Of a DNA stretch of 64,000 nt, positions 1 to 19,255 are shown one piece after another. The DNA is taken from positions 682,001 through 746,000 of the forward strand of contig VRMN01000004.1 in NCBI GenBank assembly GCA_008690995.1. The letters are read 5' to 3'. How positions within the stretch are numbered: the stretch's first letter is position 1; the number at the start of each line of letters is the position of its first letter. The position numbers and the translations under genes are program-made. The notes under the pieces were generated by a model, which saw only the letters and a list, made by a program, of their open reading frames with translations, searched no databases and was not told where the DNA came from. The DNA comes from Porphyridium purpureum (lineage: Eukaryota).

Positions 1-270
1 TCCCTGAACCGTCACTACTCGTAGAACCGCCTCCCTCATCCATCCACGCGGCGTGACGTTCCGTCTGTTGCGCAGGCACTTGCGGCGCGGCGCCCCGCAC
101 AGCCGTGGGTCTCGCGGCGCTCTGAGCCACCGCACTTGACCCAGACTTTCGCGGGCGGTCTCGCGGGTGCTTCCGCGGCCGCCCACGGGATGACGGGGCC
201 CCCAACCCGATTCGATCGTCTCTCTCCATACTCCTTGGCCCTGCTCCCTCTACCCCTCCTCAGTTCCGAC

Positions 271-705
271 TGTGTGAACTTCGTGCAAATGGGTCGAGCC
301 GAACGCACGCGAATGAACCTGCTGATGAGGAACAGGGCGCGCCAGAGCTTGCTGACGTGAAAGAGGGCGCACAGTAGTGTCGTGGCCCACAATGATTCGG
401 TTGTGCGACCGTCCAGGGGGTCGTGACGGGAACGGACGCAGAGTTTTTTGCGCCTGAGGGGGCGTTTTCTCGAGCGGACCGTTTTGGACAGAAAGGTATA
501 TAAAGTACGTTCGACAGGTGTTAGATTAGAGTGAGCCAAAATAAAGAGGGCACCGTTGACGAAGAAATAAGAGCCTACAAGGTGTTGAGAAGCTGCACAA
601 CGGTCCTTTGGCAGCAAAGAAGAACAGGAGGTGAGCACCGTGTGTGTACAGTCGACGGACTGTGACACGCGGTGCACACAGAGTGGGAAGGCGTTTCCTA
701 CAACA
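271..705 (+). repeat. Copia 5' LTR (435 bp)
   Basis: TGTGTGAACT...CCTACAACA; matches 5037-5471 with one substitution noticed (G394 vs A5160); TATATAAA near 497-504. Confidence 0.93.
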
Positions 706-733
706 ATCGCGATTTAAAGGGAAACGGAAGGAC

Positions 734-3700
734 ATGACGCAGACGCGCGGTGCTTTGCAACGTCGGAGGGATCAGCCGAGACAGAGCGGAATGCCAGATA
801 CGTCGTCGTCCGAGGAAGCAGAAGCAATGGGGTCGGGAACAGGAAGCCCACCAGGGTCTGTGGCGCAAGACGCTGGTGCGAGTGGTGCTGCAAGCATTGG
901 ACTTGCCTCGCAGACCGCCACACCAAGTGACGAGCACGCGCTTGCGGAATGGGAAGAACTGAAACGGTCGGTACTGGACTTGATGAGCGGACCAAGCTTG
1001 CTGGATGAATTTGCGTTGTCGGCGTCAAGGAAAATGATTGATGGCCTTTCGTGTGCAAAGCAGCGTGAAGTCGCTCTCTTCCTGAAACGTCAGGGAGGCT
1101 TGGACTTCGACAGCAACGAGCGGTACATTAACGTCTTGAAAAGAATGATACCTGATGATGACAGTGTGGCAAGTGGACGACTGGTTCGTGGGGTAGACCG
1201 TGGAGCGGCAACATTGGCGCGGTATCTGGAGAAAGCAACAAAGTTTGATGGGTCTGAGCACTGTGACATTCAGCTGTGTGAGCAAGACTTTCGAATGAAT
1301 TGCGACCTGGCGGGTGTGAATGCAGCGACCGCTTTGAGCGCGGTGCACATGGTCCTGGGAGGTGCCGCGCGCCAGTTATTTATAAAGGAGAGGAATCAGT
1401 TTGCGAGCATTGGCGACGTGTGGAAAAGGTTGCGTGAACGTTTTGTGGGTGAGGATCAGAAGGACAGTCTGGAGACTGCGTGGACAAACCTTTCGTTGGA
1501 CTCCTTCCGACGTGAGCACCCCGACGAGCCCGATACCAAGCTGCTGGAACGACTGATGGCCACCGCTACGACATTGCAGAATCAGCTGGACCGTGATTTG
1601 CAGAGCGATAAGAATCTGTTGATAACGTTGAAGCGGGCGGTCAAAGGAGAAAGCTTCAGCAGAGCGCTATGGTATAATCCGCCCAAGACAAGTCAGGAAG
1701 CGATCACGCGTCTCAAATTGGCGGCATCGGCGGAGCGGGTCGATAAAAGTGACACCTTCTGGACGGCGAATCGTTACGAGCGGAAGAAAAATCGGACAGG
1801 GCGAGACGGTAAGACCCTGAAATGCAACATTTGCTCGTCGGAGTGGCATCTCATGAGGGCGTGCCCGAAGGCCACAGTGGAGGACGATGTGAGACTGGCG
1901 GAGCTCTTGCGCGATACCACAGTAGACGAGGCCGAGAATGACGAGATGAGCGCGGACGCATCGGAGCGTGAAAAGGAGGCCAAAGCCTTTGACACTCATT
2001 TCGTGGATTCAGAGGATGAGGACGAAGTTGAGGTATTCTTCGCTACGAGCCGTGGTGCCAAGTTGAGTCGACAGACAATGTCGCTTTGTGTCGACACTGG
2101 AGCTCCACGCTCAGTGGTGGGCTTGCGGAGTTTGGAAGCCTACAAGAGGCGAAATCCAGTGCATATCAGAAAAGGCGAGCCGGTCAGCTTTCGCTTCGGC
2201 CAAACCGTGCTTGACTCGATCGGAGTCGTGCGGGTGCGGGTGCCAACAGATGACGCGGCTGGTATGGTGGAATTTGACTCGCATGTGGTGAATGACAAGA
2301 AGACGGACAAGGCGTTGCCATTCTTGATGGGTATGGATGCGCTGGAGGGCGTCACGCTCAGTGTAGGTGAGAAACCGACGCTGAAGTATCCGAATGGAGA
2401 CACTGTGACATTGACAAGGAAAAATGGACACCTAGTGTCACTCAATGACATTGAGTCATTCTATACCATGGTTGAGGCTACCAAGCTGCATCGACGCTTT
2501 GGTCATCTGACCGGAACGCGCGTCTTGGAGTTAGTCAAGAAAGCAGACCCGACGATGAACGAAGATGAACTGCGAGAGCTAGCCGAGAAATTGGGGCGGG
2601 CGAGAACGGAATGTCGAGTCTGTGAAGAGCAAGAGCAAAAGCCATTGCGCCCAGCAGTAGCCGCAAGATGGCCGGACGAGATTAGATTTAACCATACTGT
2701 AATAATGGATGTCATGTTCTCTGAGCGACCGAGTGACAAAGCAATCCTGCAAATGATATGCAAGGACACAGGATACACCCTCGCATGCTACGTTAATAGC
2801 AAGTCAGCCAAGGACGTGACTGCTGCGTTCCTCAAAGAATGGGTGACACACACGAGTGGATTGCCAGAGGTTGTGAAAGTAGATATGGGTACCGAGTTTG
2901 TGAACATGCATTTTGTGGCTATGATGAATTCTATGGGGGTGTGTGTGGAGACGGCCGGGATCGAAGGTGCGTGGCAGATGGGGCGTGGTGAGCAAGCGCA
3001 CGGGCCGCTGAAACAGATTCTCAACAAATTGAAGTCGGAGCGGAGCAGTAGTGGTCTTGGTGACGACGATGTACTTGGACTCGCAACCAAAGCCATGAAC
3101 GATTCAATGAACGCAGACGGTCTCGTACCGACTTTACTGGTGTTTGGATGCACGCCGCGTACGCCGATTGGTTCCAACATTATGGGATGCCCGGATCAGC
3201 GCGCGAGAATGGAAGTGATGCGGTTTGCAAGAACTGAGTACGAGGTCTTGATTGCGCGGCGTCGCCTGAGTATGGCTCTGTCCTCAAGGTACCCTGCCGA
3301 GCGAGTGATGAAGCCTGGTGATCGTGTCAAGGTCTACAGATTCCGCAGGCGCTTGTGGGAAGGACCCTATGCCCTGAAAGAGATTGACTACACATCGAAC
3401 GTGGCCGTGGTGGATGATAATGGAAAGAACCTCAAATTCTCCGTCGCTGTTGTTCGGCCATACCGAGAACCGGCGCACGGGTTTGATCGACCGGAGTCTG
3501 TGTATCTGGAACAGGGGCAGCCAGAGAAAGATGACGAAAGATGGGACGACGCGAAGCGCATTGAGCTAGAAGGCCTCGAACGCAGGCATGTGTGGGACCT
3601 GGTCCCCGCTGAGCAGGTGCCGCACGGAAGTGTAATCTTGCGCACGAAGTGGGTGTTGAAGGTGAAGCCAGACCGCATGAAAGCGCGCCTCACCGTACTT

Positions 3701-5143
3701 GGCAACATGGACAAGGATAAGGAACTCTTTGTGTCAAACGCACCTACTCTGAGAACGAGCTCTGTACGCATGATCTTAATGAGCAAAGCGGAGCGGAAAG
3801 ACTGGGACCTGTGGGTCGAAGACGCCGACCAGGCGTTTCTGCAATCCCTGTGGGAGCTGAATAGGGACATTTATGTAGTGCCGCCTCGAGAGTGGACTGC
3901 AGTAAATGCTTCTGGCGTTATGTGGAAACTGCGGTTACCTCTCTATGGATTGGTGGATGCGCCAACTTATTGGTCGAAAAGCATCTTGTCGATCCTGACG
4001 CAGACTGGTTTCTCCGTCAGTACTGATCCGTGTTTGTTCACTTGTGCGAAAGACGAAAAGGAGAGCGGTTTTGTTGGTGTGTACGTTGATGACCTGCTCT
4101 TGTGCGGAGACGAAGCACTGAAGCAGAAAGCCGCCCTTTTGGAAACACGAGTAGAGATGAAGCAGAGAATTTTCCTGCGTAGAGACAACGCCATCTCATT
4201 CGCTGGAATGCAAGTGCGCGAGGTCGAAGACGGTCTGACCATCAAACAAACGCCAATCGACGTTCTTGAAGCTCACGATTTCTCATCCTTAAGGTCACTA
4301 CGTGGTAAGTTGAGCTGGTTAGTGAATGGCACCAGAGCGGATCTAAACTACCTCTGCGCGCAATTGATGCAAGTAACAGACGTGACTTACGATCAGACGA
4401 GAGTAGACGAGCTACTCAAGAGGGTAAAAAAGGCGATGAGACATTGGGACGGATCCGTTCTAATACGAGGTCTTCGCGGCGAGGATACAACGGATCGGGC
4501 ACTGCGAATCGAAGTGTTTGCGGATGCCGCATTCGCAAATAACCAAGATCTTTCGAGTCAGCTGGGATACATTGTGTGCGTGGTCAACGACAACGGTCAT
4601 GCTGTACCCTTGCTGTGGGGATCCAAGAAGGCGAGAAGAATTACCCGCTCCGTCCTGGGTGCGGAAATCCTTGCCTTAGCTGAGGGTTTCGACGCTGGGA
4701 TCTTTATTCAAACAACGCTGCGAAGTATCGGGATGGACTTACCCCTGGGCCTGGTGACCGACAGCAGGTCCATATTCGATGCAATATCAACAGACAGACT
4801 TCCGGCGGAGAAAAGGCTTGCGCTGGATATTTCTGTCTTAAGAGAGGCTTTCAAGAATGAGGAAGTTGTGAGTATTAAGTGGGTGAGGTCGGAAGGAAAT
4901 CCAGCCGACGGACTTACAAAAGCGGAACCAAACAAGGCGCTACTTCGACTTCTGAAGGACGGTACAATTAACTTGGTGATCGAGCAGCAAATTAAGCAAT
5001 CAACCAGCGTTCGGCTCGCACAGAAAGAAGAGCGACTGTGTGAACTTCGTGCAAATGGGTCGAGCCGAACGCACGCGAATGAACCTGCTGATGAGGAACA
5101 GGGCGCGCCAGAGCTTGCTGACGTGAAAGAGGGCGCACAGTAG
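734..5143 (+). CDS. Copia gag-pol polyprotein
   Basis: First in-frame ATG at 734. Zinc knuckle CNICSSEWHLMRAC, protease VDTGA, integrase HHCC (LHRRFGH...CRVC) and D..D..E, RT DADQAFLQ / LYGL / YVDD, RNase H ...NPADGLTK. No internal stops. Confidence 0.95.
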   Translation: MTQTRGALQRRRDQPRQSGMPDTSSSEEAEAMGSGTGSPPGSVAQDAGASGAASIGLASQTATPSDEHALAEWEELKRSVLDLMSGPSLLDEFALSASRKMIDGLSCAKQREVALFLKRQGGLDFDSNERYINVLKRMIPDDDSVASGRLVRGVDRGAATLARYLEKATKFDGSEHCDIQLCEQDFRMNCDLAGVNAATALSAVHMVLGGAARQLFIKERNQFASIGDVWKRLRERFVGEDQKDSLETAWTNLSLDSFRREHPDEPDTKLLERLMATATTLQNQLDRDLQSDKNLLITLKRAVKGESFSRALWYNPPKTSQEAITRLKLAASAERVDKSDTFWTANRYERKKNRTGRDGKTLKCNICSSEWHLMRACPKATVEDDVRLAELLRDTTVDEAENDEMSADASEREKEAKAFDTHFVDSEDEDEVEVFFATSRGAKLSRQTMSLCVDTGAPRSVVGLRSLEAYKRRNPVHIRKGEPVSFRFGQTVLDSIGVVRVRVPTDDAAGMVEFDSHVVNDKKTDKALPFLMGMDALEGVTLSVGEKPTLKYPNGDTVTLTRKNGHLVSLNDIESFYTMVEATKLHRRFGHLTGTRVLELVKKADPTMNEDELRELAEKLGRARTECRVCEEQEQKPLRPAVAARWPDEIRFNHTVIMDVMFSERPSDKAILQMICKDTGYTLACYVNSKSAKDVTAAFLKEWVTHTSGLPEVVKVDMGTEFVNMHFVAMMNSMGVCVETAGIEGAWQMGRGEQAHGPLKQILNKLKSERSSSGLGDDDVLGLATKAMNDSMNADGLVPTLLVFGCTPRTPIGSNIMGCPDQRARMEVMRFARTEYEVLIARRRLSMALSSRYPAERVMKPGDRVKVYRFRRRLWEGPYALKEIDYTSNVAVVDDNGKNLKFSVAVVRPYREPAHGFDRPESVYLEQGQPEKDDERWDDAKRIELEGLERRHVWDLVPAEQVPHGSVILRTKWVLKVKPDRMKARLTVLGNMDKDKELFVSNAPTLRTSSVRMILMSKAERKDWDLWVEDADQAFLQSLWELNRDIYVVPPREWTAVNASGVMWKLRLPLYGLVDAPTYWSKSILSILTQTGFSVSTDPCLFTCAKDEKESGFVGVYVDDLLLCGDEALKQKAALLETRVEMKQRIFLRRDNAISFAGMQVREVEDGLTIKQTPIDVLEAHDFSSLRSLRGKLSWLVNGTRADLNYLCAQLMQVTDVTYDQTRVDELLKRVKKAMRHWDGSVLIRGLRGEDTTDRALRIEVFADAAFANNQDLSSQLGYIVCVVNDNGHAVPLLWGSKKARRITRSVLGAEILALAEGFDAGIFIQTTLRSIGMDLPLGLVTDSRSIFDAISTDRLPAEKRLALDISVLREAFKNEEVVSIKWVRSEGNPADGLTKAEPNKALLRLLKDGTINLVIEQQIKQSTSVRLAQKEERLCELRANGSSRTHANEPADEEQGAPELADVKEGAQ
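5022..5032 (+). other. Copia polypurine tract
   Basis: AGAAAGAAGAG, 4 nt before the 3' LTR. Confidence 0.7.
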
Positions 5144-5471
5144 TGTCGTGGCCCACAATAATTCGGTTGTGCGACCGTCCAGGGGGTCGTGACGGGAACG
5201 GACGCAGAGTTTTTTGCGCCTGAGGGGGCGTTTTCTCGAGCGGACCGTTTTGGACAGAAAGGTATATAAAGTACGTTCGACAGGTGTTAGATTAGAGTGA
5301 GCCAAAATAAAGAGGGCACCGTTGACGAAGAAATAAGAGCCTACAAGGTGTTGAGAAGCTGCACAACGGTCCTTTGGCAGCAAAGAAGAACAGGAGGTGA
5401 GCACCGTGTGTGTACAGTCGACGGACTGTGACACGCGGTGCACACAGAGTGGGAAGGCGTTTCCTACAACA
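5037..5471 (+). repeat. Copia 3' LTR (435 bp)
   Basis: Direct repeat of 271-705. Confidence 0.93.
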
Positions 5472-5540
5472 CGACTGTGCCATCGAGTGCACACAAACAA
5501 CTGTACTCAGGGATGTGAGGGTGTACACTTAATAGCAGTA

Positions 5541-5638
5541 AAGTGCGTCTCAAACAAATAGGACACTGCAAAATTTGTCTATTTTCATAGTAAATTATGA
5601 AATTTTACTGTGAAGACGTGTTTCGGAGGGGGAAACAG
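5541..5638 (+). repeat. Tc3-like left TIR, outer 98 bp (continues at 12877-12898)
   Basis: Reverse complement of 19500-19597 with two mismatches; contains outer DR CTCAAACAAATAGGACAC (5549-5566). Confidence 0.92.
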
Positions 5639-5823
5639 TGTCACGAACCGTGCTGGCCCAGGACACAGCGGCACACCCAACAGCAAGCCAAGCGGCACAC
5701 GCACGCACACAAGCTGGACAATCCACGCAACCAAGAGGAAACACAAGACACCCGCAGCCAACTGGACCTGCGGCAGGCAGGAAACCCGGAACCAACGACG
5801 CTCACGCACGCTGTTCACACGCA

Positions 5824-5950
5824 AACAGCCAAGAGCACCCACACACGGGACCGACAGAACCAACCAAGAGCAGACACACGGGAAAGACACAGCCAACCAA
5901 GAGCACACGCACGGAGCAGGCACAGCCAACCAAAAGCACACACACGGAAG
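5824..5950. repeat. ~33-bp degenerate tandem repeat (about 4 units) in G1 LTR; second copy at ~12014-12140
   Basis: Units like ACAGCCAACCAAGAGCACACGCACGG... Confidence 0.7.
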
Positions 5951-6227
5951 ACGCGCGTAACGGGGGAACCAGGCGTCCGCTGCCCAACCGGGATCCCGTT
6001 CGGCCACACCTTACGGTGATCCGGGACCCGGGGAGGCGTTGTGGGCAGCCGGGGTTAGCCGGAGGAGGTTGCCTCACCTTTCGGCTTCAAACGGCCTATC
6101 ACTCCTTTATCCGCCCCCGCCCACGTACCACCCCCGGATCCACTTCCGAACAAGGACCGTCTAATGACGCCTTACCCCAGGGCATCCGCGAACCTTCCCC
6201 GTTAAACCCCCCGCTCGCTCGCTCGCG

Positions 6228-6293
6228 CTGTACTCCCGCCGTACCCCCGCCGTACCCCCGCTGTACTCCCGCTGTACCCCCCCTGTACCCCCC
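6228..6293. repeat. 11-bp tandem repeat CYGTACYCCCG (6 units; 5 units in the other LTR)
   Basis: Direct reading of 6228-6293 versus ~12418-12471. Confidence 0.85.
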
Positions 6294-6695
6294 CTCCCTC
6301 AACAGGTACCCAAGGCCCGAACACGCTTCCTTGAATACACCTGTTTTTACTTAGATCCACCTTCACCCTTCTGTCTCCCGACCCCCCTCTCCCCTCCTTG
6401 GTTGCCGACCCGCGCGTCTTTTTATACCCATCGCGACCACTGTACCCCCGAGGTACAGTGCCTTGCTGTCGCTGAGTCTAGAACCTTCCAGAAGGTTCCA
6501 GCCACCGCCTGGCTGTACACCCATTCCATACTGGGTGGTCATCGCGCGTCTGGTCCCTAAGGGAAGGGGCCTTCAGGCCTACCACGCGCCCCCTTGTACA
6601 CCTACAGTACAGTGGGTCCGGCGCGACCAGGTATCCGGCCACGGACTATGGCTATTTTTAATCATTTCCTTAACACACGGGCTACTCCCGTGACA

Positions 6696-6708
6696 TCCCA
6701 CCCTCTCC
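6696..6708 (-). other. G1 polypurine tract
   Basis: GGAGAGGGTGGGA on the minus strand abutting the 3' LTR. Confidence 0.8.
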
Positions 6709-6934
6709 GCTTCCCAATGTCAGGTATCACATGGTCCGAAGCTTCCGGAGAGTCACTTCATACTTACAGCACATGCCAATGCTTGACGCGTCCGGCATCC
6801 ACGTCTCAAGCTCGATGTCGCCCGTGCACTGGCCATCGGCTTCGTGTGCCCGTCTTGGCATCGTAAGTACTCGAAGAGGACGTCCGTCCACGTGGCCCTC
6901 CACCCGGCCGGTGTGTCCGAGGTTCCGCCACTGG

Positions 6935-9900
6935 TCACGCGTCACGGTAGGCAGCCACCATCATTGGTGGCAATGCGAGCTCAGGTTCCCACGTATCCCC
7001 ACGTTTACCGAGTCCTCGCCATCTAACTCTGTACTCTCGGCGTCCGCCCACAACCCGATCCCCGGCTATAGCCTCTATAGCCCAGCTGCCGTCTTCTCCT
7101 TGCAAGACTTGGGATCCACTTGCCTCAAGGAGGTCCTTGTGGGCCCGAGCAAGCCGGTTCACGTGGACCAACTTCCCGTCAGGATGGCCTTCACTGCACA
7201 GTACTGCATGAACCCCGACCATTCTCAGGATGGATAGTGGTCCTACCCACGGCTTTTTCAGCTTGCGCCCTTCTCCTGAAGGCGGCGCCCAAACGTACAC
7301 CACGTCGCCCGGCTTGAAGTCATGTTCCCTGACTCGGCGATCATAGTTCTTCGTGTACCGATCCTGTGCGATCTTCGCATTCTTATTGGCAATGGCGTGA
7401 CATGCAGCAAGCTTCTTCGCGAGGTCATCTGCTTGTTCAACAGCTCTGGGTCCCGCCATACTTGCCCAGTCCCGCGCCGGCTCACCATACAACAGTTCAA
7501 ACGGAGACATCTTCGTGGATGCATGCCGGGCTGTATTATACGCATACACCATTACCGGCAACCAGCGATCCCAGTCTTTTCCGTTCGCACACACGTATGC
7601 CGACAACATTTGACACACTGTCTGGTTAAAGCGCTCCACAACCCCGTTCGTCTGCGGATGGTATGCTGTCGTAAGCATACGTCCTACACCCAGATTTTCA
7701 CACATTTTTGAAAGGATGTCGGCTACAAAGCCCGGTCCCCGGTCGGACAGCAGAGACTCTGGCGGTCCAAAATCGCACACCCAACCGTCTAGGAAAACAC
7801 GTGCCAGTGTAGCCGCAGTCTCATCCTTGACTGCATGGGCACGAACCCACTTTGTGAAGGCGTCCACCATGATTACCACTTTGCTGTGCCCGCGAGTTGT
7901 TGTCGGTGTGATACTCAGAACATCTATCGAGACAATCTCGAAACGTCTCACCGCGCGATAGACTTGCATGCGAGCCCTTCTCGGGGGCGCCTTTGTTTTC
8001 CTTGAAAAGCACTCATGGCAACAAAGAACAAACTGACGAACATCTTCCGTCCAACCGGTCCACCAGTATCGTGCATCCGAGACCCGCTTTGCAGTCTTTC
8101 CTATTCCAAGGTGCCCTGAAAGTGGCGTGCTGTGATACACATGCAGGACGCGCTGCACCAGAGCGTTTGGTATCACGACCCTGGACTCATCGCGAAGCAT
8201 AGCCCAGATGACTCCATCCTCATCAACGGTGTACTCCGGGTACGTGTATTCGGGCTTGTCTGCTTTCAGATTCTTCAACTGTTCCTGAATGTCCGTGTCG
8301 TCTGCGTATGCAGCCACGATCTCTTCCATCGAAGGTGGTGTGTACGCATCGTTCGCTCCTGTATGCTCGCCAGTATGAAGCAGCAGCTCTCGCACTCCGG
8401 CCGATGTGACAGGGACCATACCCCCATCGGCCCCCGAAGCTGGACCCTGAATCTCTTCCTGCAGCATTTCAGCCAACCGAACTACCCGCTTCACTTCCTC
8501 ATCCTCAACAGCATTCAGTCCAATGAGCTCGATTTCGCTCGTGTTGTTGAGAGTCTCAGACTTATTGCTCTCGCTCGCCACCCGAGCCTCTTCCTCATTC
8601 ATACGTACAGCTGGACGCGAAAGCGCATCTGCCACTGTATTCGCCTTGCCTGGATGATGCTGAACCTGGAAGTCGAAGTCCTGTACCTTGAGAATCCATC
8701 GCGCAATCCGACCTTGAGGCTCCTTTTGCCTCATGAGCCAGCTCAATGCGCTGTGGTCAGTCATGAGCACGAATCGTTTGCCGTACAAGTAATGCCTGAA
8801 GTGCTCCATGGCTGCAATGGCGGCCAAGCACTCCTTCTCCGTCACGGTATAGTTCTGCTCGGCCGGTCTCAGAAGCCTCGAGTAAAATGCCACTGGACGA
8901 TCGCCAGTGCCCTCCCTCTGCGTCAACATTGCTCCCAAGCCAGTGCTAGAAGCGTCTGTCCACAGCGTATGCTCTGCTTCTGGGTCGTATGCAGCCAAAA
9001 CCTTTCGATCTCCAGTTTCTGGATCACTGAGTGCTTCCCGAAGCGACAGAAGCGCCTGACTCTGAGGCTCACCAAATCGTGCCTGCCAATCCGCCGAGTT
9101 CATAGGGTATTTCTTCCACTTGCTTCCTTTGGCGTTGATTTGAAGGCCCTTCATAGCATCCCTAAGAGGCCTGCAGACTTCCTCAAATCCCTCGATAAAA
9201 TTGCGGAACCACCCCACGAGCCCAATGAACTGCTGCAGTTCCTTTGCATTCCTCGGCTCCTGCCATGCTCGCACAGCCTCCGTCTTCCTCTGGCTCGGCC
9301 TTATACCGTCCAGGCCGATATCATGTCCAAGAAACTCGACCCTTAAAGCCCCAAATCTGCACTTCGACAATGAGAACACCAAGCCCGCAGCGCAGAATTG
9401 CTCCAGCACCCGCTGCAGCGCTTGCAAGTGCTCTTCAAACGTCTTTGTCCCGATTGCCAAATCATCAATGTAAACCAATGCATTCAGGTACCTGAGCGGG
9501 CCCAGGACCGTATTTGTCAATCGCTGGAAGGTACTTGGGCTATTACAGCAACCCTGAGGTAATCGGCAGTATTGAAACAGCCCGTCCGGAGTGATAATCG
9601 CTGTCAATGGTCGGCTCTCGGGGGCCAGAGGGACCTGGAAGAAGCCATCCTTCAGATCCAGGATACTCTTGAACTTCCACGATGCAAACCAGTCGATCAT
9701 CTCTCCCACGTCCGGAATGGGATATCGATCTTTAACAGTCGCATCATTAAGCGTTCGGAAGTCTGTCGTCAGACGCCAGCCGCCATTCGGCTTCTTGACC
9801 ATGACATTCTGGCTCGACACATCTGACAAACTCGGCTCCAGCACTCCTCGGGCGACCAGCCCTTGCACCATCTCGCGCTCAGCCTGCGTCACCGCAGGAG

Positions 9901-10720
9901 CCCTGCGACGTAACCTTGCCCTGGGGAGATCCTCCAAACGCTCTGGCTTGATGCGAATCGTATGCTCGACGAGGTCTGTCTTACCCAGCTCCGGCCGGAA
10001 GAGAACCCAAAACTTCTTCAAGAGCCCTTTCATCTCCCTGCTTTGCGCTTCATCCAAATGCTCAAAGATCTTGGCTTCAATGGTAGAACAAACAGCCTCG
10101 TTGTGACCTGCATACTTTTCTTCGAGGGCCTGGATTCGCTTCTTCACTTCTGCTCCATCAGCAATATAGTGCACCGCCTCCAACTGCACCGTGGGTTTGG
10201 CTTCCTCATACATCGATCCCAGGATCCTGTGTCTTTCCAGGCATGTATGACACACGGCTTCCTGTGCACTGGAAACGTCTCGGTTGACAAAAGTAATCCA
10301 TCCGCCCGAGCGTAGGCCCAGACCCTTTCCCGGGATCAAGCAACTGACATGCTTGGCAAGAAAACGCATTCCCAGTATGAGATCAGGTCCGAGGTTCCTC
10401 ATAATCCGGACGCTTTCCTCCGACTGAATTCCCTCACCAACCCAAATTGTGGCAACGCTCTCCTCGGCCTCCCCCAACACCTCATTGGTTGGGCCCAATG
10501 CCTGTGTGTGGGTCTTTCTGCGAAGAAGCCCAAGACGGTCAGCCAAATCGTCGTTCATCCACGTGGATAAAGCCCCCGTATCAACCAGCGCAGTAGTCCG
10601 AACCTTCAGACCTCCCCATTCAGCCTGTACGTGTATCCATGGATACGAGCCCAGTGGGACTGCCTCCGACAATTCTTCAGATTCCGGGGGGCCTTCGCAT
10701 CCCCCCGCTACTCGTTTTTT
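6935..10720 (-). CDS. G1 pol (PR-RT-RH-IN-chromodomain), expressed by -1 frameshift
   Basis: LVDTGA; LDLKDGFFQV...LPQG...YIDD; TDASSTGLGA...TDHSAL; integrase HHCC and SDRG...YHPQTNGVVER; C-terminal chromodomain IEAIAGDR...EYRVRWRGLGKRGDTWEPE. Confidence 0.95.
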   Translation of the reverse strand, partial: KKRVAGGCEGPPESEELSEAVPLGSYPWIHVQAEWGGLKVRTTALVDTGALSTWMNDDLADRLGLLRRKTHTQALGPTNEVLGEAEESVATIWVGEGIQSEESVRIMRNLGPDLILGMRFLAKHVSCLIPGKGLGLRSGGWITFVNRDVSSAQEAVCHTCLERHRILGSMYEEAKPTVQLEAVHYIADGAEVKKRIQALEEKYAGHNEAVCSTIEAKIFEHLDEAQSREMKGLLKKFWVLFRPELGKTDLVEHTIRIKPERLEDLPRARLRRRAPAVTQAEREMVQGLVARGVLEPSLSDVSSQNVMVKKPNGGWRLTTDFRTLNDATVKDRYPIPDVGEMIDWFASWKFKSILDLKDGFFQVPLAPESRPLTAIITPDGLFQYCRLPQGCCNSPSTFQRLTNTVLGPLRYLNALVYIDDLAIGTKTFEEHLQALQRVLEQFCAAGLVFSLSKCRFGALRVEFLGHDIGLDGIRPSQRKTEAVRAWQEPRNAKELQQFIGLVGWFRNFIEGFEEVCRPLRDAMKGLQINAKGSKWKKYPMNSADWQARFGEPQSQALLSLREALSDPETGDRKVLAAYDPEAEHTLWTDASSTGLGAMLTQREGTGDRPVAFYSRLLRPAEQNYTVTEKECLAAIAAMEHFRHYLYGKRFVLMTDHSALSWLMRQKEPQGRIARWILKVQDFDFQVQHHPGKANTVADALSRPAVRMNEEEARVASESNKSETLNNTSEIELIGLNAVEDEEVKRVVRLAEMLQEEIQGPASGADGGMVPVTSAGVRELLLHTGEHTGANDAYTPPSMEEIVAAYADDTDIQEQLKNLKADKPEYTYPEYTVDEDGVIWAMLRDESRVVIPNALVQRVLHVYHSTPLSGHLGIGKTAKRVSDARYWWTGWTEDVRQFVLCCHECFSRKTKAPPRRARMQVYRAVRRFEIVSIDVLSITPTTTRGHSKVVIMVDAFTKWVRAHAVKDETAATLARVFLDGWVCDFGPPESLLSDRGPGFVADILSKMCENLGVGRMLTTAYHPQTNGVVERFNQTVCQMLSAYVCANGKDWDRWLPVMVYAYNTARHASTKMSPFELLYGEPARDWASMAGPRAVEQADDLAKKLAACHAIANKNAKIAQDRYTKNYDRRVREHDFKPGDVVYVWAPPSGEGRKLKKPWVGPLSILRMVGVHAVLCSEGHPDGKLVHVNRLARAHKDLLEASGSQVLQGEDGSWAIEAIAGDRVVGGRREYRVRWRGLGKRGDTWEPELALPPMMVAAYRDA
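10685..10720 (-). promoter_or_regulatory. -1 ribosomal frameshift signal of G1
   Basis: A AAA AAC heptamer (10720-10714) in the gag frame, 6-nt spacer, then a CGGGGGG...CCCCCCG stem-loop; the -1 frame is open into pol. Confidence 0.88.
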
Positions 10721-11649
10721 GTCTGGCGTTCTTCGGTCCTCTGCCTCTTATTTTTCTCCCACTTTGGGCACTCCATGCGAACGTGGCCCCGCTCCTGGCA
10801 CTCCCAGCACTTGACCAGTCGCTTGCGAGGATTCAACCCAGGGAGCCCAGCTTCATCAAAGTTACCCAAATGGTGCACGCGCTCGGGCTTCCTCACTGCC
10901 CTTACACCGTACTGCGAGCCAAGCGCACCAAAGGTTCCATACTGACCAGCCTCCTCCAACAGAGCAGTCTTCATCAAGGTCCAGTTCCCCTGTATGCCGT
11001 ACGTCCTGGCCTGACGACGCAGCTCGGAGTTTTTCGGAAGCGCCAACGTAAGTGCCTCAATCTTGCGAGTGTCAGATTCTCCCAGAGCCGTGCAGCGATC
11101 CTCCAGGACCTCCACGAATTTCTTTAGGTCCTGGCCAATAACATACTCAACATCGTGATGCTCTGCACGAAGGGCGCGCTCGTGCTCCTTGTTGTAGAAG
11201 TAAGCAGCCACAGCCGCCCATGCCTCTTGTGCTGTTGCACCGTGCAACTCCGACAGGACCTCGTAGCATTTCCTCAGCCCCACCCCGCGGAAAACTGCAT
11301 CAATCGAGGATACATGTTGGTCTGGATCCTCTCCCATGTCACGCAGGCGATTGAACCAGACCATCTTGGCGGTCAGAAAAAGTGGATCACCGGCCTTCTC
11401 AATCTGCACGCCCGCGTCACAAATAGCCTGGCCCAGTTGAGAACGAATCTTGCCGCGCACAATGGCGGGGACACCCTCTTCCTTCTGCTGAACACTCACA
11501 ACCCCATGACTTCCTATCTCGTCACCACGAGCCGTGGGCATTGTCGGCTCTGGTGCCAGCGCGCCAGCCTGTGCACGTTCCAGCTCGCTCGAGGACGCGT
11601 GCTCTCGCGCATCGTCTGAGCCCATCGTCGTCTTCCTGCCACGCACCAT
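10708..11649 (-). CDS. G1 gag
   Basis: ATG at 11649; C-terminal zinc knuckle CWECQERGHVRMEC. Confidence 0.9.
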   Translation of the reverse strand: MVRGRKTTMGSDDAREHASSSELERAQAGALAPEPTMPTARGDEIGSHGVVSVQQKEEGVPAIVRGKIRSQLGQAICDAGVQIEKAGDPLFLTAKMVWFNRLRDMGEDPDQHVSSIDAVFRGVGLRKCYEVLSELHGATAQEAWAAVAAYFYNKEHERALRAEHHDVEYVIGQDLKKFVEVLEDRCTALGESDTRKIEALTLALPKNSELRRQARTYGIQGNWTLMKTALLEEAGQYGTFGALGSQYGVRAVRKPERVHHLGNFDEAGLPGLNPRKRLVKCWECQERGHVRMECPKWEKNKRQRTEERQTKNE

Positions 11650-11828
11650 CTTTGCGACTTCGTTCCTGCTCTGAATCCTCTCTCGCAATCCTTCACTCGG
11701 TGACCGTACGTATCAGAATGTGGACACAAGTTTGTCCAAGATCAAGACCGATCTCACGTCCACACCCCACCCTCTCTCGCACCAACGTCAGATGCCACGC
11801 AATCCTGGAAGATAATTTCCGGAAATTA

Positions 11829-12872
11829 TGTCACGAACCGTGCTGGCCCAGGACACAGCGGCACACCCAACAGCAAGCCAAGCGGCACACGCACGCACAC
11901 AAGCTGGACAATCCACGCAACCAAGAGGAAACACAAGACACCCGCAGCCAACTGGACCTGCGGCAGGCAGGAAACCCGGAACCAACGACGCTCACGCACG
12001 CTGTTCACACGCAAACAGCCAAGAGCACCCACACACGGGACCGACAGAACCAACCAAGAGCAGACACACGGGAAAGACACAGCCAACCAAGAGCACACGC
12101 ACGGAGCAGGCACAGCCAACCAAAAGCACACACACGGAAGACGCGCGTAACGGGGGAACCAGGCGTCCGCTGCCCAACCGGGATCCCGTTCGGCCACACC
12201 TTACGGTGATCCGGGACCCGGGGAGGCGTTGTGGGCAGCCGGGGTTAGCCGGAGGAGGTTGCCTCACCTTTCGGCTTCAAACGGCCTATCACTCCTTTAT
12301 CCGCCCCCGCCCACGTACCACCCCCGGATCCACTTCCGAACAAGGACCGTCTAATGACGCCTTACCCCAGGGCATCCGCGAACCTTCCCCGTTAAACCCC
12401 CCGCTCGCTCGCTCGCGCTGTACTCCCGCCGTACCCCCGCCGTACCCCCGCTGTACTCCCGCTGTACCCCGCTCCTCAACAGGTACCCAAGGCCCGAACA
12501 CGCTTCCTTGAATACACCTGTTTTTACTTAGATCCACCTTACTCCTTCTGTCTCCCGGCCCCCCTCTCCCCCCCTTGGTTGCCGACCCGCGCGTCTTTTT
12601 ATACCCATCGCGACCACTGTACCCCCGAGGTACAGTGCCTTGCTGTCGCTGAGTCTAGAACCTTCCAGAAGGTTCCAGCCACCTCCTGGCTGTACACCCA
12701 TTCCATACTGGGTGGTCATCGCGCGTCTGGTCCCTAAGGGAAGGGGCCTTCAGGCCTACCACGCGCCCCCTTGTACACCTACAGTACAGTGGGTCCGGCG
12801 CGACCAGGTATCCGGCCACGGACTATGGCTATTTTTAATCATTTCCTTAACACACGGGCTACTCCCGTGACA
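11829..12872 (-). repeat. G1 5' LTR (1044 bp)
   Basis: Direct repeat of 5639-6695; TATAAAA on the minus strand at 12603-12597. Confidence 0.94.
12657..12676. promoter_or_regulatory. Heat-shock element in G1 LTR (copy at 6480-6499)
   Basis: aGAAccTTCcaGAAggTTCc: four perfect alternating nGAAn units, ~55 bp upstream of the TATA box. Confidence 0.75.
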
Positions 12873-12876
12873 ACAG

Positions 12877-12898
12877 GATGCTCAAACAAATAGGACAC
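12877..12898 (+). repeat. Tc3-like left TIR, inner 22 bp with inner DR
   Basis: GATGCTCAAACAAATAGGACAC is the reverse complement of 19478-19499. Confidence 0.9.
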
Positions 12899-12931
12899 TT
12901 GACAAAGAGAGACTATATGGAGCTCTAGGGA

Positions 12932-13784: not shown

Positions 13785-13789
13785 CCGAC

Positions 13790-14086
13790 TGTTACCAATG
13801 CTGTGCCTTTTACTCTGCTTCTTCTTTCTTGCCTCTCCTGTCTCCGAGCAAGACCTGACCGGCTAGTCCGGGCAGGCGCGTCGCCTTTTTATACCCTTAC
13901 TTCCGCCAGGGACAGCAAGGCGCCAAGAGAAATGACAATGCAAACCATTGGCATTTCTGCGCGCGTCTAGAAGGTTCTGGAACCTCTAGAAGGTTCTAGA
14001 AACGGTTAAACGGTCTACCGGCTTAGCGGCTTACCGGTTTCGGATTAACCGAACCGTTCTAGGTGACTGGGGTCGAACGGATAACA
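13790..14086 (-). repeat. G2 3' LTR
   Basis: Direct repeat of 18960-19255; PPT AAGAGGGGGGGAGA at 14100-14087. Confidence 0.94.
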
Positions 14087-14205
14087 TCTCCCCCCCTCTT
14101 GGCTCGACGTCTCGGCGAGACTCCAAACTAAGTTGCATTCTTGGCTCGAGGAACCCGCGCTCCGGGAGAAAACCTCTGCCTAGCAAACTTCTCACAATAC
14201 CCAAG

Positions 14206-17200
14206 TCATTCGGAGTCAGACTCCTCGATAATTTTCAACAAGTCTGGCTCAGAATCGGACGCCGGCATTTCGTCGGGTACTTCTTCATCATTTTCCCCTG
14301 CCATGTAGTCTTCGCGTCCATAGTATGGCTTCAGATGCTGGATCGGAAAAACATCATGACAAGCCACACCCTCAGGCAAAACCACTCGGTAAGCATGCGA
14401 GCTTACCTTCTCAATGACAGGCACCGGACCAAGAAACTTTGGTGCCTCCAAATCACTCTTGTTCGGCCGCAGTTGCGGCGCCGTGACCAACACTTGATCA
14501 CCAACTTGAAACTCCCGGGCATCCTTGCTTCGATCGAAGAACTTCTGCATTCTCCCCTGGGCTTCGATCAAATTGTCGCGGACTTCTTCATGGACTTTGC
14601 ACAGGCGAAACCAGTGCTCCGCCATGTCCTTCGTCTGTCCGTCGCGCGCAGGCCTCCACCCTTCGCTCGGTGGAAACCAAGGATCCCTTCCATATACCAC
14701 TTTGAACGGCGCGAATCCAGTGGCACTGCTTGGTGCAGAGTTGTACGCAAACTCGTACAACGGCAAGTCTCGCACCCAGCCACTATTCGTCGCCATCAAC
14801 TTGAGCATTTCCCGAATCACGCGGTTCACTCGCTCAGTTTGGCCATCTGTCTGCGGGTGGTTGGCAGTAGACATTGCCAACTTCATGCCCACCCGCTTGC
14901 TCAGCTGCTGCCAAAAGGTGGACGTGAACAGCGGATCTCGGTCAGATACAATTGACTTGGGGTATCCGAAACGGCTCACGACGTGCTTCACGAACAAGTC
15001 AGCACAACGCTTTGCTGTCAAGTCCTTGCGCGTCGGGATGAACAGCGCCATCTTCGAATAGCGATCCACCACAGTCATGATTGCATCACAGCTGCCTTCG
15101 CTCCGAGGCAGCTCTGTCACAAAGTCCATCGAGATGTCGACCCAAGGTCCTTCTGGGATCGACAAGGGCTTCAGCTTTCCAAACGACCGATTCTCTGACT
15201 TTGTCACTTGGCATGCGTGACAAGTCTTCACAAAACGGCTCACGTCTCGCTTCATCTTTGGCCAGTAGAAGCGAGTGATCAAAGATGCATACGTCGTGTC
15301 TGCCCCACGGTGTCCTGCTGTCGGGATATCGTGGTGGAGTTGCATGACACGCTCTCTGAACTTCCTCGGCACGCAAACGCGATTCCTCAAGTACAAGAGC
15401 CCAGCTTCGGTTCGAAAACCCTGGTGGGTCGGTAAGTCTTCCATCAAAGTACCCAAGTCTGGGTCACTCGAGTACGAACCCACGAATGCCTGGAAACCCG
15501 CACCAAATTCATCACACCGAACTTGGTACTCTAGCGCGTGCAACTCTGGCTTCCTCGACAAAGCATCGGCTACCACGTTCGACTTTCCCTTCACATAGTC
15601 GATCGTGATGTCAAACTCGGCTAAAAAGTCCAACCACCGTGCCTGCCGGCCATTCAGCTCCTTCTGCGTCATCAGATGTTTCAACGCCTCATGATCCGTA
15701 TGAAGCACAAACTTTGCCCCGTACAGATAAGGTCGAAACTCTCGCAGACAGTGAATGACGGCCATGAGCTCACCTTCGTAGCTGCTGTACCTGGTCTCTC
15801 GGTCCAGCAGCTTACTCGACGTAAACGCGACCGGTCTGCCTTCCTGTGCCAGCCATCCCCCCACCGCGACTTCAGAGCGGTCCGTGTACACCTCAAATGG
15901 CTTTTCAGGGTCTGGCAAGGCCAACACCGGCGCTTCCGTCAACATCCCGACAATCTTCTTGAAGGCCGACTTGCCTTCATCTCCCAGTTCGATCAGCTGC
16001 TTCTTCGACTTTGCGCTCTGCAACAGCGAAGTCAGCGGCGCCACGACGGTAGAGTATCCTTTGACAAACCTGCGAAACCAGTTTGTCATTCCCAAAAAGG
16101 ATCTCAACTCCGTCACCGTCTTTGGCACTGGCCAATCTCTCAAAGCTTCCACCTTCCGTGGATCCATCTTCACGCAACCGTTGCCGACAATGTTCCCCAG
16201 GTATTCGACTTCAGAAACGAAGAAGCTGCACTTCTTGCGCTTCAACCGATACCCCGCCCTTTGCAAGCGCGACAACACTTCCTTCAGGACCTCGCCGTGC
16301 GACTGCCGATCCTTGGTGAAGACCAAAATATCGTCCAAGTAGACAATGACGGTCTTGTCCAGCAGATCTGCAAACAGCTCGTTCATGGCCCTCTGAAAAG
16401 TTGCCGGCGCGTTGCAAAGACCAAACGGCATCACACGGAACTCGAACTGTCCGTACCTGGTCTGGAACGCGGTCTTCGGCACGTCCTCTCCCCGAACACG
16501 CAACTGGTGGTATCCCGATGCCAAATCCAACTTTGAAAAACAATGAGCTGCTCCCAGTCGATCCAGCAACTCATCCATGTTCGGCAAGGGATACCGGTCC
16601 TTCACGGTTGCGTCGTTCAACGCCCGATAATCCACGCACATCCTCATGCTGCCGTCTTTCTTCTTCACGAACAGCACGGGTGCTCCAAAGGGGCTCTGAC
16701 TCGGCTGGACGAATCCCTTGTCCAGCAAGTCATCCAAAGTCTCTCGGAGGACTTTCAACTCCGCAGGGCTCAGTCGGTAGACCCTGCCCACTCTCACAGG
16801 CTTCTCATCTTTCAGCCTAATCACATGCTCCACTGTTCGGCTCTCAGGCAGCCCACGTGGCTCCTCGAACAGATTTTCAAAATCATTGAGCATCTTCTTC
16901 ACAGAGTCATCTCCTTTGGGCTCCACTGAACAGGGCTCCTCCCTTCCTTTCAGCACGCCGAGGTAGCACTCTTCTACCTCCTGACTCTTCAACAGCCGAC
17001 GGAGCTCTTTCCGCGGCACCAGCATCTGCGTCATGCTCCAGGCCTTCTTCTCTCCGTAGGCCAACATGCCAGACTGCCAATCAATCACTGGGTTCTCCCG
17101 CTTCAGCCACTCCATGCCCAAGATTGCGTCTTGTCCCGCAATCCGGCAAATGGCAAAGTTAGCGGCCCCTGAGTACCCATCGCTCAGTTCAAACTTGACA

Positions 17201-17604
17201 TTGGAGACTTCTCCGGCTGTCTCCAATACAGACCCGTCTGCCAGGGTCACATGATCTCTCTTCCACGACGCCTTCCGCTTCAGGCCGTCGGATTTCTGCA
17301 CAAAGTCCACGCTCATAAAGTTGTCCGTCGCGCCACTGTCAATCAAAAACGTGGCCTCTCCGTCGGACTTGTGCACTTTTCCTCGAACTCGAAGAAGCAT
17401 GGCAGCTCCCATCCCTCCAAGTTCCTTGATCACGGGCTGATTTTCGCTCGAGTTTCGCCCACGAGGTTTCGGACAGCCAGACCTTGGCTTACCAAGGCCA
17501 CCACAGCGGTCTCCATTGCCGCCCCTAGAGGTCTCGTAACGTCTGCGAGCCTCCTTTCCCTCTGACTGTCCGAGGAACCTCTCTGCTCGAGCTCCTAGTT
17601 TTTT
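14206..17604 (-). CDS. G2 pol (PR-RT-RH-IN), expressed by -1 frameshift
   Basis: LIDSGA; LDLASGYHQL...MPFGLCNAPATFQ...YLDD; TDHEALK; ISMDFVT...SDRDP...HPQTDGQTER; acidic C-terminus. Confidence 0.95.
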   Translation of the reverse strand, partial: KKLGARAERFLGQSEGKEARRRYETSRGGNGDRCGGLGKPRSGCPKPRGRNSSENQPVIKELGGMGAAMLLRVRGKVHKSDGEATFLIDSGATDNFMSVDFVQKSDGLKRKASWKRDHVTLADGSVLETAGEVSNVKFELSDGYSGAANFAICRIAGQDAILGMEWLKRENPVIDWQSGMLAYGEKKAWSMTQMLVPRKELRRLLKSQEVEECYLGVLKGREEPCSVEPKGDDSVKKMLNDFENLFEEPRGLPESRTVEHVIRLKDEKPVRVGRVYRLSPAELKVLRETLDDLLDKGFVQPSQSPFGAPVLFVKKKDGSMRMCVDYRALNDATVKDRYPLPNMDELLDRLGAAHCFSKLDLASGYHQLRVRGEDVPKTAFQTRYGQFEFRVMPFGLCNAPATFQRAMNELFADLLDKTVIVYLDDILVFTKDRQSHGEVLKEVLSRLQRAGYRLKRKKCSFFVSEVEYLGNIVGNGCVKMDPRKVEALRDWPVPKTVTELRSFLGMTNWFRRFVKGYSTVVAPLTSLLQSAKSKKQLIELGDEGKSAFKKIVGMLTEAPVLALPDPEKPFEVYTDRSEVAVGGWLAQEGRPVAFTSSKLLDRETRYSSYEGELMAVIHCLREFRPYLYGAKFVLHTDHEALKHLMTQKELNGRQARWLDFLAEFDITIDYVKGKSNVVADALSRKPELHALEYQVRCDEFGAGFQAFVGSYSSDPDLGTLMEDLPTHQGFRTEAGLLYLRNRVCVPRKFRERVMQLHHDIPTAGHRGADTTYASLITRFYWPKMKRDVSRFVKTCHACQVTKSENRSFGKLKPLSIPEGPWVDISMDFVTELPRSEGSCDAIMTVVDRYSKMALFIPTRKDLTAKRCADLFVKHVVSRFGYPKSIVSDRDPLFTSTFWQQLSKRVGMKLAMSTANHPQTDGQTERVNRVIREMLKLMATNSGWVRDLPLYEFAYNSAPSSATGFAPFKVVYGRDPWFPPSEGWRPARDGQTKDMAEHWFRLCKVHEEVRDNLIEAQGRMQKFFDRSKDAREFQVGDQVLVTAPQLRPNKSDLEAPKFLGPVPVIEKVSSHAYRVVLPEGVACHDVFPIQHLKPYYGREDYMAGENDEEVPDEMPASDSEPDLLKIIEESDSE
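17570..17604 (-). promoter_or_regulatory. -1 ribosomal frameshift signal of G2
   Basis: A AAA AAC (17604-17598) immediately before the gag stop; pol is in the -1 frame; possible downstream stem AGGAGC...GTTCCT. Confidence 0.8.
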
Positions 17605-18389
17605 GACTCCAGCGAGTCTCCCTCCAGCTGCTGGATAGTCTTCCTTGCCTCGGGACACGTCCTGGCGATGTGCCCCGGCTTTCCACAATTCCAGCACTTG
17701 ATCTCGGTACGAACACGCCTCTGACCCTGCACATGTCCCAGCTCCATCGGGACAGGTCCTTCCTGCGCTGCACGACCGAAAAATGGCGCCCTCACACTTG
17801 AATCACGCACGCCGCGGGTCGCATGAATGGCGTCGTCCACGACCACCGCCACCTGCGCAGCCTCCGCAAACGTGCTCACTCCTCGCTTGTACACTTCCAA
17901 GCGGACCTCGGGCTTCAGACCCCTCACAAAGCGGTCCATCATTTCTGCGTCCGACAAGTCCGGAATCACAAGTGCCGCGTCCTGAAAAGCCGCCACATAC
18001 GCATGGGCCGGGCCTTTCTGCGAAAGACGCGTCAACTTGTCCCTTGCACGCCTGATCGAATCCTGCGGCGTGAACCGAGCACTCACGAGGGCAGCAAAAT
18101 CATTCCACGTCGTGGGGATCTCCTGCGGGTAGTGTTCGCAGTTTAGAACCCACCAATGAAGCGCTTCTCCCTCGAAATAGTCTGATGCCAGGTCCACAGC
18201 ACGCCTCTCCGCAAGCAGACGTTTCTCCAAATCGTCCGGGTGGAAGCTCTCCAACAGCCGGCCCAAGATCTTCTTTCTCGCCTGGAACAACCACGTCTTC
18301 ACGACCAGAAGGTCCCTCTTCCCGTCGAACCTCATCAGACGGGCCTCCTTCGGGCCACGTGGTCCCAGCGTCTCCGAATCAATCTCCAT
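17595..18389 (-). CDS. G2 gag
   Basis: ATG at 18389; retrotransposon gag motif (FEGEALHWW...F...F...LSQKG...FVRGLK), PVPMELG, zinc knuckle CWNCGKPGHIARTC. Confidence 0.92.
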   Translation of the reverse strand: MEIDSETLGPRGPKEARLMRFDGKRDLLVVKTWLFQARKKILGRLLESFHPDDLEKRLLAERRAVDLASDYFEGEALHWWVLNCEHYPQEIPTTWNDFAALVSARFTPQDSIRRARDKLTRLSQKGPAHAYVAAFQDAALVIPDLSDAEMMDRFVRGLKPEVRLEVYKRGVSTFAEAAQVAVVVDDAIHATRGVRDSSVRAPFFGRAAQEGPVPMELGHVQGQRRVRTEIKCWNCGKPGHIARTCPEARKTIQQLEGDSLESKN

Positions 18390-18945
18390 GCTTTCTGGAC
18401 TAAAGCACACTCAACGATCACGACAACGACACAAACAGCAAGCCTCCGACGCTCACTTTCTCCAACAGCTGCGCGCACCACGAACGGGCTCGGTCGCCCT
18501 CACGAACACAAACCGACACACGAAGCTGTCCTCTCACGCACACACACGCACAGCAATCTTCTCACGTACACACGACAAAACACACAGCAATCCTCCTCTG
18601 TTGCGCTGGATGGGGAGCGGCCCGGGCCTTTGCACTGGGGCGGGGATTATAGATGCGATCTTATATGGAGGTGTTCGGCGCCTACCTTCGCAAAGGTGGT
18701 CGTGCGACACTAGGATGAATCCTAGTGAAGGCTGACCGTTACGGCTCTTGCCTACTAATACGTGCTAAGGCAGAGAGCGAGTCCGCCGTCAAGGCCTAGG
18801 CCTATCGTACAGCCAAGACTGAGACCCGCTTCCACCCGTCGCACCCTCCGGATCGACTTACTCGAACCCCCTCACCCGCAGACTCTCCCACCCAGGCAAC
18901 CCCAGAGAAACTCTAAGAGAACCTTAGAGCAACCCCAGGTAACCA

Positions 18946-18957
18946 GCGATGATACCA
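18946..18957 (-). other. G2 primer-binding site (tRNA-iMet type)
   Basis: TGGTATCATCGC, 2 nt after the 5' LTR; resembles the canonical TGGTATCAGAGC. Confidence 0.8.
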
Positions 18958-18959
18958 AA

Positions 18960-19255
18960 TGTTACCAATGCTGTGCCTTTTACTCTGCTTCTTCTTCTTG
19001 CCTCTCCTGTCTCCGAGCAAGACCTGACCGGCTAGTCCGGGCAGGCGCGTCGCCTTTTTATACCCTTACTTCCGCCAGGGACAGCAAGGCGCCAAGAGAA
19101 ATGACAATGCAAACCATTGGCATTTCTGCGCGCGTCTAGAAGGTTCTGGAACCTCTAGAAGGTTCTAGAAACGGTTAAACGGTCTACCGGCTTAGCGGCT
19201 TACCGGTTTCGGATTAACCGAACCGTTCTAGGTGACTGGGGTCGAACGGATAACA
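18960..19255 (-). repeat. G2 5' LTR
   Basis: Direct repeat of 13790-14086; TATAAAA on the minus strand at 19062-19056. Confidence 0.94.
19138..19171. promoter_or_regulatory. Double heat-shock element in G2 LTR (copy at 13969-14002)
   Basis: GAAggTTCtgGAA cctcta GAAggTTCtaGAA, ~76 bp upstream of the TATA box. Confidence 0.72.

Follow-up and report, generated by a model that had tools for sequence, protein, structure and literature searches.

A palindrome at the edge of the 5′ LTR takes the primer-binding position of a red-algal Copia element and is a likely homologue of the fungal Conserved Hairpin Site

How does an LTR retrotransposon begin reverse transcription when a palindrome occupies the position of its primer-binding site (PBS)? 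This question is raised by a Copia element of the red alga Porphyridium purpureum, located in a stretch of 64,000 nucleotides that we call the window. Priming modes of LTR elements include whole-tRNA priming, half-tRNA priming and self-priming of the Tf1 type. A preliminary description of this DNA had reported a 10-bp perfect palindrome that includes the terminal A of the 5′ LTR, and our analysis confirms it at positions 705-714. The element has the following features.

271..5471, forward strand: intact Copia element of a Porphyridium purpureum family
267..270, forward strand: left copy of an apparent 4-bp target site duplication (TSD), CGAC, ambiguous
271..705, forward strand: 5′ LTR, 435 bp, TGT...CA, with a TATA-like box near 497
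705..714, forward strand: perfect 10-bp palindrome AATCGCGATT at the PBS position; its first base is the last base of the 5′ LTR
734..5143, forward strand: single gag-pol ORF of 1469 aa from the ATG at 734, with the Copia domain order
736..746, forward strand: two GACGC words, possibly the remnant of a CHSeq2 core (see below), within the first gag codons and not significant alone
5022..5032, forward strand: polypurine tract (PPT), which ends 4 nt upstream of the 3′ LTR
5037..5471, forward strand: 3′ LTR, 435 bp, different from the 5′ LTR at one position
5472..5475, forward strand: right copy of the apparent 4-bp TSD, CGAC

The two LTRs are identical at 434 of 435 positions, and the reading frame carries the gag-pol motifs CX2CX4HX4C, DTGA, KARLTV, YVDD and ADGLTK. 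Only 28 nt separate the 5′ LTR from the ATG. Directly after this LTR comes ATCGCGATT, which together with the terminal A of the LTR makes up the palindrome; after the 3′ copy there is flanking DNA instead. No TGG follows the 5′ LTR, so there is no TGG-type PBS at this place, in agreement with the preliminary description, which saw no tRNA PBS; the tRNAs that we compared with the site were those of 17 Cyanidioschyzon genes. ARAGORN finds no tRNA in the window, and an Rfam search of positions 600-900 gave two matches, both far below threshold. As a measure of chance, 118 of the 63,970 positions in the window begin a perfect palindrome of at least 10 bp, as do 5 of the 4,682 that come after a CA. 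A palindrome frequency no higher than in shuffled controls, which the preliminary description had named as a refutation, did not occur. The palindrome is unchanged in the long contigs of runs X12 and X5 (every difference accounted for), and no change in it is among the differences listed for run X3 (11 of 12 accounted for).

A short hairpin is possible in the last U5 bases, just before the palindrome, both in Copia (684-702) and in the Gypsy element G1 described below (11830-11855); these two regions fold no better than shuffles. Elsewhere the window holds a 4032-codon open frame with no Pfam match (46666-58764) and an RNase III/dsRBD gene (33281-34597).

To which group of Copia does the element belong? 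In its 90% protein cluster, three named members come from Porphyridium purpureum. The nearest relatives in the RT-RNase H region are other Porphyridium Copia elements (41-46%), followed by unnamed and fungal proteins (Talaromyces, Pyrenophora). We built an IQ-TREE tree of 37 rows chosen from the hits, which is without a named metazoan GalEa or CoDi reference and in which P0047 is GalEa-like by motifs only; here the window element and the red-algal and fungal elements form one clade with support 100/98. The Porphyridium group is sister to a group of fungal QTDD-type GalEa (Talaromyces, Pyrenophora), marine elements and proteins of Chondrus and Porphyra. The RT phylogeny that the preliminary description had called for thus groups the element with fungal GalEa, and a second tree (FastTree) also makes this link. 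Red-algal monophyly is not rejected (AU test, p 0.104). We therefore make no claim that fungal GalEa are nested inside the red-algal elements, and the trees leave open that they could have arisen from within them. Set against the GalEa motif table in the available part of PMC5445492, the element has LTRs of the form 5′-TGT...CA-3′, one large ORF, DTG(C/A), ADxxTK, a KARL-type motif and YVDD, while TRPDI reads TRADL.

Fungal GalEa elements carry a site that invites comparison. As given in the available part of PMC5445492 (2017), their Conserved Hairpin Site, published as fungal only, consists of CHSeq1, a stretch of nine bases that forms a palindrome together with the last A of the LTR, and CHSeq2, a downstream inverse complement with an A/A mismatch; there was no known mechanism, and the fungal elements have 5-bp TSDs. 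As a positive control, we recovered the fungal site in 12 fungal-type loci. The Copia site has the geometry of CHSeq1, in that its nine conserved letters become a palindrome once the last LTR base is added, but not its sequence (CTGATCAGT / CTAATTAGT or a close derivative): ATCGCGATT and CTGATCAGT have 3 of 9 letters in common. Aligned in the same register, the fungal ACTGATCAGT and the algal AATCGCGATT differ in three base pairs, each altered on both sides with the symmetry kept, a covariation that is one contrast only and not a series.

In five fungal loci (L001, L037, L040, L046 and L059) the last T of the palindrome continues as TGGT. In L043 (2228-2245) it continues as TGGTAGCA, the start of the tRNA-Met PBS of metazoan GalEa, possibly a relic of an old PBS behind the palindrome.

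How well is the algal site conserved? A metagenome scan, from which 80 of 84 confirmed loci were kept, supplied a marine GC-rich group in which 40 LTR ends were located by U5 similarity; its contigs are partly redundant and represent about four families, 56-89% identical to each other. Fifteen of these ends lie 3.9-5.7 kb upstream of RT. The identical nine letters follow in 13 of the 15, and the other two have one change and a damaged LTR end. Five further junctions in permuted contigs comprise four with the exact site and one that is changed. The 20 marine 3′-LTR ends are followed by varied flank, and the site stands after none of them. In RT-RNase H the marine families are only 31-35% identical to the window element. 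Of all similarities to the window LTR and leader, only a junction word of 13-14 nt is found again at a constant position in the marine DNA. The tenth base after the LTR varies among these relatives (T, C or A), so conservation stops where the symmetry of the palindrome stops. Within the algal group there is no compensated variant: all three deviant junctions break the symmetry.

No such junction was seen in 19 listed loci, most of which end short of the 5′ LTR, and the low-GC loci of neighbouring clades do not reach their 5′ LTR. CA-started palindromes in L010, L011, L039 (a second site), L057 and L081 proved on inspection not to be at LTR ends and were rejected. One scan of viral contigs gave one fungal-type Copia locus, and three further viral contig scans gave nothing. 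Since the named protein relatives of the marine elements are from Chondrus crispus and Porphyra umbilicalis, their hosts are likely to be red algae.

Taken together, we think it highly probable that the Copia palindrome site is functional and homologous to CHSeq1. The comparisons make it the likely red-algal homologue of that fungal sequence, and the relationship to the fungal GalEa site looks like inheritance, not convergence. The preliminary description had linked the palindrome to the fungal GalEa hairpin site and extended this feature to an alga. The link is supported by the trees (clade 100/98) and by section 10 of PMC5445492, in its available part, and the extension by the same geometry in the same clade. 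For the fungal site, described in 2017 and thought to be confined to fungi, there had been no explanation. A differently lettered algal palindrome in the same register suggests that the conserved property is symmetry at the LTR edge, and not the hairpin or the letters. It also suggests that the site is as old as the ancestor that red-algal and fungal GalEa share.

The hairpin half of the site is the basis of one account of priming. The downstream CHSeq2 would fold on CHSeq1, the RNA would be cut 3′ of it and the new end would prime, with the palindrome as a by-product or a switch. Such a fold is seen in the fungal loci, with z of -1.4 to -3.9 in 11 of 12. Both the Porphyridium element and five of five marine representatives have a GACGC word 15-27 nt downstream (background 4-7% per interval of this kind). 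In the register of CHSeq2 this word could form a pairing with the A/A mismatch of the fungal site, again at nucleotide 7. Against this, the hairpin is not significant at any of 11 algal junctions (z +1.3 to -1.2), and the forced GACGC fold is not the best one, with per-locus p of 0.02-0.19 over 18 perfect sites; the GACGC rule itself overlooked the true CHSeq2 in several fungal controls. The bases adjoining the LTR are unpaired in most, and in the Porphyridium element the GACGC word is in gag codons. In the available supplement of PMC5445492, CHSeq2 is not listed for 6 of 44 published fungal families. Such intramolecular priming would also leave the perfect symmetry unexplained, and we judge it distinctly unlikely. 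In the algal elements the hairpin half would be at most vestigial.

What then is the palindrome for? The most likely answer, to which we give a probability of roughly 0.5, is that it replaces the PBS and would let a second Copia RNA supply the primer for reverse transcription. Two co-packaged genomic RNAs would pair antiparallel over the 10-base palindrome. One strand would be cut one base inside the duplex end, probably by the RT/RNase H of the element; in Tf1, RT/RNase H cleaves an RNA duplex. At its 3′ end, the released 5′ piece, R-U5-AUCGCGAU, would then be paired to the base that directly follows the LTR, a position taken in animal GalEa by the end of the tRNA. This paired end could prime minus-strand strong-stop DNA. 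If this is the case, the symmetry must start at the terminal A and the site may not drift one base at a time.

Among the observations that count for dimer priming are the site in 13 of 15 upstream marine LTR ends, the double-sided changes between alga and fungi, and the lack of a Tf1-type complement. Regarding the last of these, Tf1-type self-priming was rejected as an explanation, as it needs a PBS that pairs with some 11 nt of the transcript 5′ end, within the LTR, and the best complement in either LTR has 9 pairs with 2-4 G-U. The homodimer duplex is predicted at -11.9 kcal/mol for the Copia 10-mer and at -21.1 for the G1 18-mer, and the monomer region at the Copia site folds no better than shuffles (z 0.13). 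The metazoan GalEa PBS abuts the LTR (PMC5445492), in HIV-1 and possibly in Ty1 the two RNAs of a dimer make contact through palindromes (PMC3592414), and a self primer is released by cleavage in Tf1-type elements (PMC6317226), all as stated in the available parts of these papers.

Other observations count against dimer priming. The Copia site ranks only about 48th of 986 14-mers for self-pairing in the 5′ kilobase, and the primer duplex left after the cut is short, at 8 bp. Two RNA runs gave no pile-up of RNA ends at either palindrome, which as ordinary RNA-seq is a weak test; coverage was about 8,000-fold at the G1 palindrome in X24 and few-fold just downstream of the Copia palindrome in X23. 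With no symmetric double change inside the algal group, the covariation is a single contrast between alga and fungi. Finally, invariance within a host lineage is also expected from a host-RNA primer.

Such a primer would make the site an ordinary PBS for an unusual host RNA, either a tRNA fragment or a small RNA, that is self-complementary there by chance. The sequence is indeed fixed in red-algal-type elements and fixed differently in fungi, and the A at position 7, kept in algal and fungal sites, is where U33 would pair in half-tRNA priming. Half-tRNA priming takes an anticodon arm that ends near tRNA position 39, and with U33 opposite A7 the tRNA would need a CGC anticodon and, at position 32, a purine. 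Among the 17 Cyanidioschyzon tRNA genes in the available supplement of PMC3728597, tRNA-Ala(CGC) makes only 6 of the 9 pairs (by eye), and the core words have no match in these genes. The T-arm of tRNA-Leu(CAA) from the same source matches 8 of the 9 primer letters needed (by eye), but we estimate a rough chance of 0.14 for such a match among about 1,300 tRNA positions, and conservation of the site stops before the T-loop complement. The match to an internal tRNA segment that the preliminary description had named as a refutation was thus not found among these 17 genes. Two different RNAs would, moreover, both need perfect palindromes in one register. A host-RNA primer for the Copia site is therefore disfavoured, and we regard it as unlikely.

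Could the palindrome serve to dimerise or package the RNA, as the retroviral DIS does, or to bind a dimeric protein, with priming by another route? This would account for the symmetry and the slow change, and palindromes are so used in HIV-1, with candidates in Ty1 (available part of PMC3592414). However, the DIS is additional to a PBS and sits in a loop (available part of PMC5445492), no other primer site was found in our element, and two sequence variants, as well as a Gypsy element, keep the palindrome in a fixed register relative to the last LTR base. This makes a role without priming quite improbable.

The Gypsy element concerned is one of two in the window, and the other serves as an internal control.

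5639..12872, reverse strand: Gypsy G1 with a chromodomain; LTRs at 11829-12872 (5′) and 5639-6695 (3′)
11812..11829, reverse strand: 18-bp perfect palindrome ATAATTTCCGGAAATTAT of G1, from the last base of its 5′ LTR
13790..19255, reverse strand: Gypsy G2, the internal control, with a 5-bp TSD and, at 18946-18957, a TGG-type PBS 2 nt beyond the LTR

ATAATTTCCGGAAATTAT is the only perfect palindrome of at least 18 bp in the window, and it is unchanged in contigs of runs X1, X11 and X13. G1 matches a P. purpureum protein at 99%. A search of genome contigs with the G1 alignment returned 24 distant Gypsy loci (30-51% in the best segment) and no close relative, while a viral contig search returned four distant Gypsy loci only. 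Among these 24 and four loci, the LTR pairs with CA or CAC ends have no palindrome behind them, and TGG-type sites follow such pairs in L090, L098, L101 and L106. The G1 palindrome is real; it rests on one family and has no support from relatives.

Several further observations concern these Gypsy elements. Both are nested insertions in a Tc1/mariner-like element. Of its inverted repeats, one at about 5540-12900 is split by G1 and the other lies at 19478-19598; its DDE_3 ORF is at 12932-13888. In run X24, G1 is transcribed 7,000-22,000-fold over 11560-12872, with read-through from 3′ LTRs into the flanks, and four reads run from the G1 LTR end into the LTR start, as a two-LTR junction could. 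The same run has RNA ends at 12390 and 12517, on either side of a tandem repeat rich in G, and we did not interpret them as start or stop sites. Loose ends at 830 and 4183 in runs X23 and X3 match the G2 LTR, pointing to G2 insertions in Copia copies of other strains. Among L086-L109, several prokaryotic genome bins carry eukaryote-type Gypsy, many from one bin, and are likely to be contaminated with host DNA.

The preliminary description had further proposed that Copia and G1 converged on one route assisted by a host nuclease and marked by 4-bp TSDs. The shared register stands, as both palindromes start at the last LTR base, in two superfamilies of one host, and both have A/T arms around a 4-nt C/G core. 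The TSD part fails. Apparent TSDs in the window are 4 bp for Copia, 4 bp for G1 and 5 bp for G2. That of G1 is solid, as the element is inserted in one inverted repeat of the Tc1/mariner-like element and the other repeat copy is intact (read by eye). That of Copia is ambiguous: the 8 letters CGACTGTG, which make up the PPT/U3 junction of the element itself at its 3′ LTR (5033-5040), are repeated in the target and stand both at the left junction (267-274) and in the right flank (5472-5479). The five marine loci with both flanks all fit a 5-bp TSD, L030 exactly and L024, L033, L051 and L068 with one mismatch (six were examined, and L048 is cut off). Loose ends of other copies of the Copia family also hint at 5 bp, from a mixed consensus. 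The length of a TSD is determined by the integrase and not by the primer. Fungal GalEa, too, have 5 bp in the available part of PMC5445492.

A single sequence-specific host nuclease, as had been suggested, does not fit either, since the cores (CGCG, CCGG and, in fungi, GATC) differ, as do the lengths. The Copia site, shared with fungal GalEa in a clade with support 100/98, looks inherited and not host-specific, so the convergence claim falls for Copia, and for G1 convergence may apply. We hold a common host-nuclease route to be very improbable. As for the insertion sites themselves, the 8-bp match of the target to the Copia U3 end possibly reflects microhomology-assisted insertion, and the G2 TSD CCGAC is the same as the Copia left flank CCGAC. 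In the left flanks of L024, L030, L033, L048, L051 and L068 the last target base is G in 6 of 6, the same as the base preceding their 3′ LTR, a possible target preference.

Returning to dimer priming, a wider version of it would be a fourth way of priming LTR elements, in which one dimer RNA cut at a palindrome primes the other, ancestral to red-algal and fungal GalEa and reinvented by a Gypsy lineage in the same alga. We put this forward tentatively, as a possibility with the odds somewhat against it. In the literature we found no account of a red-algal site or of dimer priming; the original papers on PyRE10G and on Chondrus elements may mention the sequence. Overall, the Copia site is real and conserved, it is a variant of a known but unexplained site, and the mechanism is plausible. 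Porphyridium makes it testable, with young Copia copies, a tRNA-primed control in G2 and a second palindromic element, G1, with abundant RNA. If dimer priming is true, it would be new replication chemistry for retroelements, and annotation tools based on the PBS would miss such elements.

How does the element compare with known systems? Fungal GalEa are the closest. Copia has in common with them a stretch of nine bases directly after the 5′ LTR that is palindromic with the terminal A, the apparent lack of a tRNA PBS, the A at nucleotide 7, the RT clade, the DTG(A/C) and ADxxTK motifs and a single ORF. They differ in having CTGATCAGT where Copia has ATCGCGATT, while Copia lacks a clear CHSeq2 hairpin and has a red-algal host; Copia also carries the animal-type CX2CX4HX4C and YVDD, whereas fungal GalEa carry C2C4C4H and QTDD. 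Metazoan GalEa share protein motifs and a primer site that abuts the LTR, but are primed by tRNA-Met, with the PBS TGGTAGCAGAGC. Half-tRNA priming (Drosophila copia, Osser, Bianca, FunCo1) likewise occurs in Copia elements without a TGG after the LTR, but the anticodon arm it needs is not supplied by the one red-algal tRNA-Ala(CGC) seen. The self-priming elements Tf1/Sushi, Tcn1 and TAR do without a tRNA and cut the primer from their own transcript, as is proposed for Copia; as described in the available part of PMC6317226, however, that primer is the RNA 5′ end, complementary to a non-palindromic PBS, and the Copia LTR has no such complement. Finally, the retroviral DIS and the PAL motifs of Ty1 are short self-complementary RNA words that pair two genomes, as the Copia palindrome is proposed to do, but in the available part of PMC3592414 they are additional to the PBS and are not tied to the LTR edge.
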